From a virus, in the IMG/VR virus record IMGVR_UViG_3300023284_001453: a stretch of DNA of 40,189 nucleotides. The stretch is one strand, 5' to 3'. Position 1 is the first letter of the stretch. Every line of letters starts with the position of its first letter. Made by a program: the position numbers. Below, piece after piece: positions 6,001 through 15,000 of this stretch.

Positions 6001-9000
6001 AATCCGTCATAAAATTCAACCTGTAATTCCGCTTTATCGTTCCCAAAACGACTATTTTGCCACCAACCTAATGTAATGGTTAATTGTCCAGCATCAGCTT
6101 CTGTTATAAATTCGGCTGGCAGAACAACATCTTGATAAGCTAGTCGTTGACCTGAGCCCGAACCACCCCACCAATATCGTGATCCACTGTGAGGAGAAGG
6201 ACTGGAAGTACGAACACTTAAAGAACCGATTTGGTTAATCCAATTTGCTGTTAATGATTCCGCACCGGGATTTAGAAGAGTTAAAGGAACAGGATTAGAA
6301 ATAGTTTGCGTAACATCATCAGAAGTAATATGATAAAGAACTAATAAATCATCTTCTACTACACTTCCAGGAAGAGCTGTAGTAAAAGAAGTACTTGGGG
6401 AAGTAATTCGATTAGTTGTTGTGTCTTTATAAAAACCAACAGGCTCAGGTGGTGCAGACAATAGACTTATTATAGTTTTGCCAGGAATATTTGTTAAGCC
6501 TGAAAATTTTACTACCATTATATTCTTTAAAAACTCATTACTGTTGCTTTGAGTGGTAGTGGTGCGCCTGCGAAACCTGCTCCAGTTACATCAGCAACAC
6601 GAACTATAATTGCGGTTGGTCCTATTACAAAAGCATTAAACATTAAACCTGGAGGAAGGATGGCAAGAAAACCTAATACAACTGAATCGCCCACAACGGC
6701 CGTTGGGGCTGCTACGCCAAACGCAACGTCAACAAAACTGGGAGGGCCTGCGGCAATTGCTGGTATAACAAATCCTACATCAGTAACAGTATCCAACGCA
6801 ACTAATGGTGCGGGACCAAGAGCTAATGGACTCGCAAATACTATTGCTCCAGTTCCTTTAGCTTCGATATTCAAATCAACATTTGTGTCCGGACCAACGG
6901 AACGAATAATAGGACCTGAACCAGTAAGAGCATGTTCGATATCAATCCAATTTACTGCCGCTTCGCCGCCTGATGCAAAACCAAGAACAAGCTGAGACCC
7001 GCCGAAGCTAATACCTTTACCATTAACATCAAGATTACCACCAAGTTGTGGGGTTGTGTCTTCAATAAGATTACTAATACTACTGGCTGCTCCAACTGAT
7101 GCAAATCCAAGAGTGCCAGCACCATTAGTTGTTAGTGCTTGTCCTGATGATCCATCAACAATTGGCCATATCAATCCATCGAGAATTAAACTGCCATCTC
7201 CTGCGCCGCCAGTTCCAGGAGCTATAAATACAGATCCAGAAGAAAAGGCTCCTGATCCATCTCCACTAACGATAGTAGTATCTCCGCCAGTAGCTGTTGA
7301 GTCACTATCGCCTCCACCAACAGTTAGACTTTCATTTGTATCACCACGCATTTCTGAAGGACCAGTTATCCCAACAATTACATCACCAGTCCCTTTTGGT
7401 TCAATACTTAAATCAACATTTGTATCCGCTCCAACTGAACGAATAATAGGTCCTGAGCCGGTTGCTTCATTTTCGATCTCAATATAATTAACTGCTGAAG
7501 CATCTTCTACAAAATCAAGTAGTAGATTTGTTCCGTCTCCTAAACCAAATGTATTAACATCAAGCTGTCCACCAAGCTGTGGAGTTAAATCTTCAACGAT
7601 ATTATTAAGTCCGCCGCCCGAAACGTCGCTGAATTGAGCCCAGTCAATATCACCTACGTTAATGGTTATAACACCATCTCCGATAACTACCCATCCAGTA
7701 GAGCCATTAACCGATCCTGTTTCAACAAATGTAAAGTTTCCTGCGCTAACTTCGTTTGATGGTGTTCCATCCTGATCCGTTGCTCTTGTCAAAACTGTTG
7801 TTCCACCTGATCCTGTATCGGATGCGACGTATATTCCATTTTCTTTAGCATCAGCTTGATTTTTAACGAGAGCACGATCACCATCAGCCAGATTAGTTCC
7901 ATCAACACTTGTAAATCCGGCACCTGGCGCAGTTAATGTATCTCCAACTCCGCCGTTATTTACAAAAGTAAATGTAGAAAGGTCTCCAGGAACAGTAGCA
8001 AGCCGGACGGACTCTTTTGGATCAAGTCCCGCAGCAAGTGAATCAACATATAATTTAGTAGTGGCGTCGGCATCTACAGTAGGTGTAGCCAAGTTAATGA
8101 TTTTGTTGTTTTGCGCGTCCAATTCTCCACCAAGTTGTGGAGTTGTGTCATCAACAACATTGGTAAGTCCGCCACTAGTAGTGAAACTAAGATTTCCGGC
8201 ACCATCTGTTGTAAGCACTTGTCCGTTTGTTCCATCCGCAAAAGGCCAACTTAATCCATCCAGAATAATGACTCCGGTTCCATCTGGAGCAATAGGAATG
8301 TTGCCATCTGACACACTAACTATAGAAAATCCATTTACATCGAGATCACCACCAAGTTGTGGTGTTGTATCATCGACTAAATCATCAAATTCGCTGCCAA
8401 CAGCTTTCCAAGATAATCCATCACTATAAAATGGACCTGGGGTAGGAGCATCAGAAACATAAACAAGACTTGCTTCGTTATCAATTGCAGGTGGCAATTC
8501 AGCTAATAGAAAAGACACTAATTCCAGAGGGCCAGTCATTATAGAAGAACCGTCTGATTCGAATTTACGAGCTTGAAGTTCTGTTATTTCGATCTTAGCT
8601 ATCGTAAAGTTATCTCTCATAACTTTTGCTGGTTGGTCAATACCAGTTACTGGTTTTGTTTCATCTATATTAGATACCATAAATTAATCTTCCTTTTAGC
8701 TATTTATTATAACCAATTTTTAAATCTCAACTAATATGTCGAAGCCGCGATCAGCAATATTTCCTTCAGCATCTTCAACTCTAACTGAAAAATGGAAATT
8801 TTGATCGGCAATAACACCGGTATTAACCGTCCCTGAGAGCTCACCTGTTAAAGCATTAAGACTTAATCCACTAGGAAGACTGCCACTTACCAATGTAAAT
8901 ATTAGAGAACTGCTGATTGGACTTTCTGCTAGTAACTGTATTGAGACAGCATCAGTGTCTTGAAAGGTTCCTAATAATCCAACTAATGTAATCCATATTG

Positions 9001-12000: not shown

Positions 12001-15000
12001 TAAGAATTCCATCATCAGCTGTTACGGTAAAACTAGTTTCAAAATCAACATTAACAACTAGCGGAGCAAATCCTGTAACGAATCCGTCTACACTGAGAAA
12101 CCATCCATGAGGTAAAGAGCCACTAAACACAATTGGAGCATCATTTCGACTTACCGCTGCAAGCTGGATATTAAGTTCATCTCCTTCCTCAATCGATCCT
12201 AGATCAGGTGCTGTTTGCCAAACAGGAGGCAAAGGACTGTCTATTATCGTAATACTAAATGATCGATCTTCAAAGACAACAGTGTCCGATGCTCTTATTG
12301 TAAAATTGCTTATCGTATCTACTGTAACTGCGGCTGCCACACCAGACAGTAATCCAGTAGTACCATTTAAAGTTATGCCGACTGGAAATGCTCCAGACAC
12401 TAATGAAAATGAAACAGCATTTCCAGTAAAACCAATAGCTTCTAATGGTATGTTAAGTGTTTGTCCTTCGGGAAAATCAATGTTACCCGAAGGAGTTATC
12501 CATTCAATATTATGATCAACAAATTTTATAAAAGCTAGTTTATCAGTTGTTCCCCCAGGAATATTCGTCACTTTTCCAGGTGTAGCACAATCAACAATGT
12601 CGCTTTGAACAAGAGATGGTAGCGCACTTGGAGCATTTTCTAAAATAAGTGCAGCAATACCAGCAACAACAGGGCTTGACATACTTGTTCCACTGAGAAC
12701 ATTAATCCCATCAACTGAACCTGGTTCAGGAATCCATGTGGAAACTACGTTAGTGCCTGGAGCAAATACATCAACAGCAGCTCCAGTATTAGAAGCTTCA
12801 TCTCCAGTAATACCGAACTCTCCACCTGGATTTAATACAGATCCTTCAGAGTTGCCAAAATTTGAAAATGTAGCTCTTGAATCTACATCATCCACCGCAC
12901 CAACTGTTACTACTTCGGTTAATCTTGCTGGTTGGAAATTCTCAACATCGGCGTTGTTATTTCCAGCAGCAACTACCACTGTTATGCCTTCAGTTATCAT
13001 AGCCAATACAGCTATTTCCAAAGAAGTTACAGGAGATGCTGAAGGAATAAATCCTCCTAGACTCATATTACATACGGCAGGTGGGTTTCCCAAATTTGCA
13101 TAATCTTCAAGAACAGCCTCGATTCCAGCTATTATTACTGATGCTGTAGTTTGACCAGTCCTGCCAAAAACTTTAGCAGTTTTCATTGTAACATTTTTCG
13201 CTACGCCGTATGTTGCGCTGCCAAGAATACCAGCAACATGTGTTCCATGTCCGAATTCATCAGTTCCGCGTGGAAGACTGATTCCTACTAAATCAGCGAT
13301 AGGATCAAATGCTATTCCAGGAGCTCCAATCTTGTCTACGGAAGATATTCTTCCTTCGAATTCCGCATGATTAAAAATAGCACCAGAATCAATTATATAC
13401 GCTGTTACTCCGGTGCCATCAGACGAAAAAGTAAAACTTCCGCTCAATGGAAGATCTGTTTGATCTACTCTATCAAGATGAGCCGGAGCATTATCTTGAC
13501 GAGTAGATGTATAAAATATTCCTGATTCTTCAACACTGATTACACGAGAATCGTTCCTATACCAATTGACAAGGAGAGTAGTTAGTTTGGCGGAAACACC
13601 AAACATAGCTCTTTTGTAAACATAATCAACTGTGACACCCCAGGATTGGAGTTCTACAACTAAACCATCAACGTCGGATTTATTTTGAACGCGAACAATG
13701 TATTCTTTTAATTCTGGCATGTATACGATCCATAGCAATAATATTACTATTTATCGCATTTGATTTATCTTCTTCGCTTGGATTTCCTGCCTTTTGTTTC
13801 TTTATTTCCGCTATAATATTCCGGATCTTTCTTTTTAACCCATTTTATGAACTTCTGGATTTCTTCGTGCTCAAGTAATCTTTCAACAGTATTATAATAA
13901 TGCTGCATTTCTCTTTCAGTGAGAACGGAATGTAATTTTCTATGGCAGATTTTATGTAAGGCAACAGTTTCTTTGCCTTTAAATGTTCGTGGAATTAGAT
14001 GATGATCATCCAGGCTTTTGCCCGGAATCATATCACGATTACAGATAGGACATTTTTTATATTCTTTAGTCATTTATTCAAACTGCGATTGATATTCCTC
14101 TAAGAATTTAGTTTTCCCTCTATCTTCTTTAATCATAACACAAGGAATAATACTTCCGTAACGATATTCTTTGCCATTATGAAAAATTACTGTAGAAACT
14201 GCTTGATTTTTATAGACACCTTTCACCCCGTTCGGATCATCAGACTTCTCTACTTCTGTATAAGTTAAGAACTGTCCTCTATATTCACACACTAAAGAAT
14301 CTGCTTGTGCCTGTTGGGCGACAGCAGCTAATAGCATTGCTGCTATAACAAGTGATATACATTTTATCATATCTTCCCCCTATTTCTTTATATTAAAATT
14401 GATAATACCGCCAGCTGGATTTGGAGCTATAATAATCATTTTGATTTTTTCAATCTCTTCATCAGACAAAAACTCAAGAGCTTTTTCGATGGCCGTTTTT
14501 AGCCATTCATCACTACAATTAAGTTTGTCAATAACTTGAATTTCTTGTTCCATTATAGCCACCTTAATTTAAACGCCGTTGCATCATACATGTTTTGAAA
14601 AATAAATCCAACCTCAGCACAAGATGGTTTTACGTGTTTATAACCCCAACTATACTTACTAATACAATTTTCTAAACACCATTGGACCATATCATCAATA
14701 ATCTGTTGTTCAACAGTATATTCGTCACCAATTACTATCCAGTCAAAGTTATCAAAAACTGAAGAAGACCAATCTTGTGGCCCTTCTAAGTATTTTTCAT
14801 CTATTAAATCATGAAGCATATCACAACCACCTTAATCTAACTGCCATTACCTCTTCATCTGTCTCAAATAATAATCCAAATTGGTTACTACTATTTTCTA
14901 TTGTAAATTCTTGTTCTTTAGCATGTATATTATTTTCTTCCAGCCAATCCCAAAATTCTACAGAAAGATTCCAACGAAGGGTATCAGGGTTTTGTTCGAA

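Follow-up and report, generated by a model that had tools for sequence, protein, structure and literature searches.

What would a virus do with a subtilisin-like protease fused to a long chain of immunoglobulin (Ig)-like domains? The question is raised by a gene on the minus strand of the IMG/VR virus record IMGVR_UViG_3300023284_001453, a stretch of 40,189 nucleotides (nt) referred to below in its full length as the window, to which all coordinates refer. We show that the product of this gene (S8/He_PIG) consists of an I9-type propeptide, an S8A catalytic domain, nine He_PIG domains and a conserved C-terminal module, and that protease-less proteins with He_PIG repeats and the same C-terminal module form a family at a similar genome position in related jumbo phages, members of which have been detected in virions. 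The reading that we prefer, and to which we give about an even chance, is that of an accessory virion fibre or decoration protein carrying a latent extracellular serine protease of the proteinase K type. To judge from gene content and synteny, the window is part of the genome of an uncultured jumbo phage of the Atu_ph07/RaK2-like group, whose members share T4 core genes (PMC6102473, PMC7824862). We regard as new the link of the S8 protein to a protease-less virion family detected by mass spectrometry (MS), the definition of a 2H-like domain and the near-fixed count of nine repeats; the architecture as such was already known, being annotated in two isolated phages and carried by many metagenomic clusters.

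Protease and propeptide

The originally predicted range 8720..13738 is a single minus-strand open reading frame (ORF) with no interruption; the 1670 amino acids (aa) proposed for it did not stand. The true start is almost certainly the ATG at 13720, chosen because the resulting product of 1666 aa matches the database entry P0001 at 100% identity and coverage, and because the N-termini of the closest homologues (MPELKEY...) agree with it. The protein has a mass of 176.6 kDa, an isoelectric point of 4.05 and two Cys (aa 217 and 378); it has no signal peptide, transmembrane or hydrophobic segment. Its N-terminal features, all on the minus strand, are as follows.

8720..13720, minus strand: complete coding sequence, ATG at 13720, stop at 8720-8722, 1666 aa
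13496..13720, minus strand: I9-type propeptide (aa 1-75), from phmmer, AlphaFold2 (AF2) and Foldseek; sub-threshold in Pfam I9
12521..13495, minus strand: S8A catalytic domain, proteinase K subfamily (aa 76-400), from Pfam, PDB sequence matches and AF2
13388-13390, minus strand: codon of D111, read from the DNA
13247-13249, minus strand: codon of H158, read from the DNA
12959-12961, minus strand: codon of the oxyanion residue N254, read from the DNA
12683-12685, minus strand: codon of S346, read from the DNA

The joining of a subtilisin pro-enzyme to Ig-like repeats, as first described for this ORF, was borne out by Pfam, phmmer, AF2 and Foldseek. In the Pfam scan, which had been proposed as a check, Peptidase_S8 and He_PIG scored above threshold and I9 below it. 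Peptidase_S8 (PF00082) was matched over aa 104-382 (E 7.7e-29, 101.3 bits against a cut-off of 21.8), and the three motifs on which the claim of an intact Asp/His/Ser triad had rested were all found, IIDSGA at 109, GHGTHVAG at 157 and GTSMSSP at 344, with the catalytic codons read back from the DNA. D111, H158, N254 and S346, with the triad in the order Asp-His-Ser, correspond to the catalytic residues of aqualysin and keratinase when aligned with them. All four are invariant in a 30-sequence alignment that takes in cellular outgroups and 17 phage homologues of 33-83% identity; the Asp, His, oxyanion Asn and Ser are likewise retained by Atu_ph07 gp329 and Phosso gene 119. At long evolutionary distance the S8 domain is conserved as well as the other domains.

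The best PDB sequence matches of the protease were keratinase (5wsl, 3.9e-52), aqualysin I (4dzt, 1.5e-51) and proteinase K (approx. 1e-41), all of MEROPS subfamily S8A, to which the catalytic domain is 35-40% identical. The AF2 model of aa 1-500 has a predicted local distance difference test score (pLDDT) of 84.6 and superposes on aqualysin I with a template modelling score (TM) of 0.93, the highest for these enzymes. Shared with them are the Asp-His-Ser order, the oxyanion Asn and the N-terminal I9-type propeptide; the phage protein differs from them in lacking a signal peptide, in its two Cys, in inserts specific to its family at approximately aa 125-150 and at aa 287-307 (the latter disordered and within the S8 domain) and in a C-terminal extension of 1270 aa.

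The I9-like propeptide fell short in Pfam alone (E 0.0095, 17 bits, cut-off 21.2) but is supported from several other sides. phmmer aligned aa 6-290 with the proteinase K precursor 8rse, the AF2 model of aa 5-70 has beta-alpha-beta-beta-alpha-beta topology with a pLDDT of about 91, and Foldseek matched the protease model to pro-forms, namely prodomain-containing PCSK9 (415 columns) and ProN-Tk-SP; the homologue P0016 has a precomputed PF05922 match. The linker at aa 72-78 (FYTS/TRQDNAP) has a pLDDT below 50 and aligns with the mature N-termini of aqualysin and keratinase, and autoprocessing is predicted around it. The phage S8 family begins at the first propeptide strand without the signal peptide that its cellular relatives P0021 and P0120 possess. 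Judged by sequence, the pro-enzyme seems complete and its active site intact, and the proteinase-K-like enzyme is apparently active.

The He_PIG repeats

The protease is followed by a chain of Ig-like repeats, the last of which stands apart at the C-terminus.

10118..12514, minus strand: eight consecutive He_PIG repeats, R1-R8 (aa 403-1201), from Pfam and a repeat hidden Markov model (HMM)
8723..9010, minus strand: ninth He_PIG repeat, R9, C-terminal (aa 1571-1666), from the repeat HMM and Pfam

Where at least eight He_PIG-type repeats had been predicted, our in-house repeat HMM counted nine, eight of them at aa 403-1201 and one at aa 1571-1665. Pfam He_PIG (PF05345) matched the full protein in eight stretches (2e-76, 253 bits), and R1 and R9, scanned singly, scored 42 bits each against the He_PIG cut-off of 24. 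The repeats have the cadherin-like beta-sandwich fold; their linkers (D..N.PP.W) resemble the DxNDNxPxF linkers of cadherins and DPD/DPE loops are also seen, which as a pointer to Ca2+ binding by the linkers is a likeness of sequence only. They are mutually 29-49% identical and no DNA-level tandem repeat was found in the He_PIG region, from which we take the units to be old duplications. Across homologues they align one-to-one, with 9-10 repeats counted in 17 of 18 close homologues at identities as low as 34%, and this near-constant count suggests a stalk of fixed length, unlike a variable adhesin. Cadherin-type domains measure approximately 4.5 nm each; if this value holds for He_PIG, the eight consecutive domains would form a stalk of approximately 35-40 nm. 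Among close relatives the least conserved domain is R9 (64-65% identity, against 69-91% for the other domains).

The central region and its protein family

Between repeats 8 and 9 lies a non-repeat region of approximately 370 aa (aa 1202-1570) that the original prediction had overlooked and that has three parts.

9476..10117, minus strand: central domain A (aa 1202-1415), conserved, without existing annotation, 2H-like fold in AF2
9176..9475, minus strand: part B (aa 1416-1515), Flagellin_IN-like module, borderline Pfam match
9011..9175, minus strand: conserved segment C (aa 1516-1570), motif TTFD...G.G..F.G....DRY

Domain A is kept in every homologue, those of Atu_ph07 and Phosso included, and has the signature FG...H(76%)...YxVxY....D...R...LPxWM...Q...G...PG across 136 representatives. 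AF2 predicted for it a two-lobed alpha+beta fold like that of the 2H phosphoesterases (LigT, Usb1, CPDase, the central domain of AKAP18). Searched with the central-domain profile, Pfam and the PDB sequences yielded nothing relevant and no similarity to the 2H family, and the paired HxT/S motifs of 2H enzymes were absent across the 136 representatives: a single His (aa 1285) is conserved at 76%, with Thr or Ser at +2 in just 24%, and at a second candidate site, HLR, the Arg is conserved and the His is lost in some sequences. As the HxT/S pair is absent and neither Pfam nor PDB gave a sequence match, we do not class domain A as a 2H enzyme; an active 2H phosphodiesterase was ruled out on the missing motifs, and the domain is treated here as a modelled 2H-like fold used non-catalytically.

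Part B matched Flagellin_IN (PF07196) at 26 bits (1e-05) when the region was scanned alone, against 21.6 bits in the full-length scan (cut-off 22.7), and the Pfam match is seen in only two of 12 family members. The module (approximately 80-100 aa) occurs in some homologues only. P0006-P0010, P0012 and P0014 lack it in their central region; P0011, P0017 and P0018 have a similar module within the protease domain, where it separates the Asn-Met-Ser-Leu-Gly segment from the Ala-Ala-Gly-Asn segment. To judge from these positions, it behaves as a mobile insert.

An exhaustive profile search with aa 1202-1575 returned 1029 representative proteins at E <= 1e-3, 611 of them at E <= 1e-10. Most are 300-1300 aa long and protease-less, and in these the domain lies in the C-terminal half and is preceded by He_PIG repeats. 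An S8 domain was present in 43 of the 163 central-domain proteins scanned, and, since the architecture is in addition already annotated in Atu_ph07 and Phosso, it is less unusual than the original prediction held. The central-domain family has no Pfam model and no PDB sequence relative, and is nearly always accompanied by He_PIG repeats; some of the relatives, not including the window protein, weakly match phrog_13911 ("virion structural protein"). A Foldseek search of BFVD gave mostly generic Ig matches. Every central-domain context examined was a jumbo-phage-like genome, and isolated phages with the domain are represented by Atu_ph07 gp329, Phosso gene 119, CBB_326, GAP32_321 and a protein of Erwinia phage Kaldavass.

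Homologues in virions

The closest parallels in isolated phages are gp329 of the Agrobacterium phage Atu_ph07, annotated "extracellular serine proteinase precursor" (1251 aa), and gene 119 of the Sinorhizobium phage Phosso, annotated "S8 family peptidase" (1287 aa). Both phages have jumbo genomes of 470-490 kb and hosts among the Rhizobiaceae. Like the window protein, the two combine an S8 domain in which the catalytic residues are kept with He_PIG repeats and the central domain, and their genes are likewise followed by large hypothetical and fibre genes. They differ from it in being only 26-29% identical and approximately 400 aa shorter, in having three Pfam He_PIG stretches where the window protein has eight, and in an extra N-terminal segment of approximately 60-70 aa; the Flagellin_IN-like module and the ninth repeat were left unaligned by BLASTP. 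Homology to gp329 extends over protease, repeats and central domain (BLASTP 4e-44). This protein was detected in Atu_ph07 virions by electrospray ionisation tandem MS, mainly in the top gel slice, and its gene closes one of three virion-protein clusters, the neighbouring gp326, gp327 (tail fibre) and gp328 also being virion proteins (PMC6102473).

The protease-less counterparts CBB_326, GAP32_321 and RaK2 ORF160 (phrog_13911), virion structural proteins of RaK2-like jumbo phages, have the central domain and a genome position similar to that of the window protein, but have approximately 790 aa and neither a protease domain nor any Pfam match. Between the central domain and CBB_326, hhalign gave 95% probability (E 2.9e-8). 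CBB_326 appears to lack the His that 76% of central domains retain. GAP32_321 and RaK2 ORF160 were detected by MS in virions (Table S1 of the CBB paper, PMC5259590). The virion association originally suggested for the S8/He_PIG product is thus backed by published proteomics on its homologues, with and without the protease. A further protease-less protein, the metagenomic P0133, combines the central domain with He_PIG and has comparable downstream synteny.

A likeness to decoration proteins of the T4 Hoc type, which display tandem Ig-like domains on the virion and carry no enzyme, is also apparent. Both kinds of protein have tandem Ig-like domains and a separate conserved module that could attach them; the repeats of the window protein are of the cadherin/dystroglycan He_PIG type and, unlike those of Hoc-type proteins, carry an enzyme. 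Ig-like phage surface proteins are discussed, by way of Fraser et al. 2006, in PMC5259590. A literature search on virion subtilisins in jumbo phages and on He_PIG in phages found nothing specific.

Genomic context

The window carries a T4 gp30.3 homologue (5e-59), homing endonucleases and two tRNAs, and is syntenic with metagenomic contigs spanning 95 to 570 kb; on these grounds a cellular origin or contamination was ruled out. At the nucleotide level, neither the gene nor 25 kb of the window had a Megablast match among 50,697 phage records. The order ClpS - SpoU methylase - small ORFs - S8/He_PIG is kept in the window and in contigs L001 (142 kb), L002 (a contig of up to 570 kb) and L010. Downstream of the S8 gene, the window, L001 and L002 have fibre-like genes, MazG and a DNA polymerase III (Pol III) alpha fragment, after which L001 and L002 have a clamp loader. 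In CBB, GAP32 and the contig of P0133, too, only a few genes separate the gene of the protease-less protein from a Pol III alpha fragment and clamp loader downstream of it. On its gene content, the S8 locus is a small virion-gene island amid housekeeping and replication genes (ClpS, SpoU, MazG, Pol III alpha fragment), and its assignment to a T4-like structural module gives way to that of a virion-gene island in an Atu_ph07/RaK2-like jumbo phage. The genes next to it are the following.

6527..8680, minus strand: 717-aa fibre-like protein with TPQLGGxLDVN repeats, PHROG head decoration and tail fibre matches
4730..6518, minus strand: two more virion-structural-like genes, from PHROG and Laminin_G_3 matches
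13765..14073, minus strand: 102-aa ORF just upstream of the S8 gene, HNH-like Cys/His motif, Pfam HNH E 0.0082

That the S8 gene stands beside fibre-like genes, as had been noticed, was confirmed by PHROG matches and BLASTP. The 717-aa protein is homologous to the product of a 1072-aa gene with a Phage_phiTE_241_C domain behind the L001 homologue (BLASTP 4e-75); of the two products of 4730..6518, one (307 aa) matches phrog_12736 (virion structural protein) and the other (313 aa) has a Laminin_G_3 domain and baseplate-wedge-like PHROG matches. Fibre-like genes lie directly downstream of the S8 gene in every classifiable locus (window, L001, L011, Atu_ph07 and Phosso), their types including a tail-collar domain in L011, the gp327 tail fibre in Atu_ph07 and a minor tail protein in Phosso. 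The 102-aa ORF is kept upstream of the S8 gene in L001 (82%), L002 (73%) and L010 (42%) and, being conserved at the locus, appears to be resident there rather than a mobile endonuclease.

The 27-kb contig L011 (GCA_012033295.1, JAAURC010000112.1) encodes P0020, listed at NCBI as "S8 family serine peptidase [Richelia sp.]". P0020 was considered as a cellular homologue and rejected: it has the phage central domain, and T4_baseplate and tail-collar fibre genes are found on its contig. L011 is a phage binned into a cyanobacterial metagenome-assembled genome, and as a hint to the host it is at most weak.

A late-promoter motif had also been proposed for the gene. The candidate sites are these.

13747-13754, minus strand: octamer ATAAATAG, 34 nt upstream of the ATG, matching the T4 late promoter TATAAATA at 7/8 positions
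8700-8707, minus strand: second ATAAATAG, 27 nt upstream of the next gene

No exact TATAAATA was found upstream of the S8 gene, and ATAAATAG occurs three times in the window against 3.56 expected by chance, so that the claim reduces to a 7/8 octamer at a frequency not above chance. Of the 11 ATAAATA sites on the minus strand, three are no more than 60 nt from a gene start; the intergenic DNA is AT-rich, and this positional enrichment is only suggestive.

Possible function

If the S8/He_PIG product is an accessory virion protein, its course might be pictured as follows. The zymogen would be made in the infected cytoplasm, where the propeptide would serve as folding chaperone, be cleaved off autocatalytically near aa 72-78 and keep the enzyme inhibited until dissociated or degraded; chaperoning, self-cleavage and inhibition by the propeptide are established subtilase behaviour. 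The conserved C-terminal module may dock the protein on the particle, a role suggested by the conservation and co-occurrence of the central domain, and the eight He_PIG domains would hold the protease approximately 35-40 nm away from the virion. Outside the cell, the protease could cut a host-surface protein, the candidates being the S-layer, pili, flagella, outer-membrane proteins or a proteinaceous matrix, and such cleavage might open the way to the receptor or free particles from debris. The protease looks like an add-on to an older structural protein and not like a core morphogenetic enzyme, since protease-less counterparts exist in phages that already hold a gp21-type prohead protease.

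Several points weigh against this reading. Phage fibres usually attach via their N-terminus, and the fastest-evolving domain, R9, would also fit a distal, host-facing C-terminus. The 2H-like model of domain A was built from 18 sequences and has a mean pLDDT of 79.6, with values from the high 80s to the low 90s in its core and of less than 50 in loops. The virion evidence for gp329 is thin, amounting to three peptides and 2.08% coverage from a stock purified with polyethylene glycol (PEG) (PMC6102473), and CBB_326 itself went undetected in CBB virions (PMC5259590).

Hair- or whisker-like appendages are known from RaK2-, Atu_ph07- and phAPEC6-like jumbo phages, and their proteins have not been identified (PMC5259590, PMC7247149). 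A bolder version of the accessory-virion reading, which we put forward tentatively and think doubtful as a whole, is that the S8 protein is itself one of the "hair" or "whisker" fibres of these hairy jumbo phages, tipped with an active proteinase-K-like enzyme. Such a fibre would be the protein-degrading counterpart of polysaccharide-depolymerase tailspikes and would clear an S-layer or other protein coat on the way to the receptor. Its attachment would be through the hitherto undescribed LPxWM-signature domain family (more than 1000 representatives), recycling a 2H fold as a structural adaptor.

Another possible explanation, in our view unlikely, is a soluble protease, a zymogen freed at lysis and not part of the particle, whose He_PIG repeats bind envelope debris or neighbouring cells while the enzyme digests surface proteins. 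The benefit could be the destruction of receptors, sparing progeny from adsorbing to debris, or the loosening of a proteinaceous matrix or biofilm. Without a signal peptide, release would be possible only at lysis, which suits this explanation, as do the few gp329 peptides in a PEG-only Atu_ph07 preparation, where carry-over is possible, and the nearest relatives of the catalytic domain, which are S8 proteases secreted by cells and built of several domains, FN3 or Ig among them. It fits poorly, however, with the detection of the He_PIG and central-domain module by itself in GAP32 and RaK2 virions, with a gene always clustered with fibre and virion genes, and with a repeat count that is near-fixed and not variable as in adhesins of variable length. 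Were the enzyme soluble and released at lysis after all, the gene would be an ordinary accessory one.

The S8 domain could instead process the neighbouring fibre or virion proteins during assembly and be found in virions as a minor leftover or structural passenger, a role raised in the original prediction too. Large fibre-like genes adjoin the S8 gene, and the authors of the Atu_ph07 study placed gp329 under post-translational modification (PMC6102473). We nevertheless consider it improbable: CBB, GAP32, RaK2 and the P0133 lineage keep the protein at a similar position without the protease domain and have a T4 gp21-type prohead protease (CBB_255), which together imply that S8 is dispensable for morphogenesis in the group. 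Eight Ig-like domains would moreover have no obvious use in an intracellular processing enzyme, to which an I9-inhibited zymogen is also poorly suited. The S8 family includes pseudoproteases, and a dead S8 fold could serve as the binding or structural head of an Ig-like adhesin fibre; weak NCBIfam matches to CspC-type non-triad models, and the failure of some very divergent S8-bearing relatives in a crude motif check, point that way. Against it stand the Asp, His, Ser and oxyanion Asn, invariant in the 18 close homologues, Atu_ph07, Phosso and the cellular outgroups, and the retention of the I9 propeptide, for which we know of no role other than folding and inhibiting an active enzyme; we hold a pseudoprotease to be very improbable.

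To our knowledge, nearly all characterised enzymes of phage particles attack polysaccharide or peptidoglycan. If the accessory-virion reading is true, a virion-borne protease of broad specificity would be a different route through the host surface, with relevance to the host-range engineering of phages and to anti-biofilm enzymes. The S8 protein would be a candidate for the appendage components mentioned above and the central domain a conserved candidate docking domain. Atu_ph07 and Phosso are in culture and hold homologues, so the idea is directly testable.

Other genes in the window

Several other genes of the window are listed here.

33895..36471, minus strand: 858-aa ORF resembling major vault protein (MVP), Pfam MVP_shoulder 6e-22, Vault_3 2e-12
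15347..16108, plus strand: homing-endonuclease-like ORF
24596..25417, minus strand: homing-endonuclease-like ORF
868..1497, minus strand: homing-endonuclease-like ORF (these three from PHROG 655/314 and the I-TevI DNA-binding domain)
29523..30428, minus strand: histidine kinase core, 301 aa, HisKA 5.5e-24, HATPase_c 1e-25
25414..26928, minus strand: aldehyde dehydrogenase, Aldedh 1.4e-121
28368..29204, minus strand: radical SAM protein, 2.1e-13
38036..38938, minus strand: ATPase of the ATP-binding cassette (ABC) type, 1.2e-33

In the 858-aa ORF, aa 477-809 are nearly collinear with eukaryotic major vault protein (PDB 4hl8, 1.7e-07). In the phage database it has relatives only in three huge genomes labelled "uncultured phage", with sizes of 462 and 735 kb (40-41% identity over 98%), and by these matches it is a vault-protein-like gene common to the largest known phages. 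Two genes are broken relative to L001. At 16088..16640 (minus strand) the homologue of the SpoU methylase is split over two frames, with aa 135-156 missing in comparison with the intact 208-aa L001 counterpart, and at 16696..17791 (plus strand) the homologue of a 441-aa gene of L001 is split over three; either pseudogenisation frameshifts or assembly errors may account for both. Of the homing-endonuclease-like ORFs, the one at 15347..16108 has the opposite orientation and separates the SpoU-like gene from the small ORFs; no gene is called there in L001. No sensor domain was recognisable in the 301-aa histidine kinase, the gene of which adjoins a tRNA-Leu (29438..29521). The aldehyde dehydrogenase, radical SAM protein and ABC-type ATPase are encoded by genes of the auxiliary-metabolism type.

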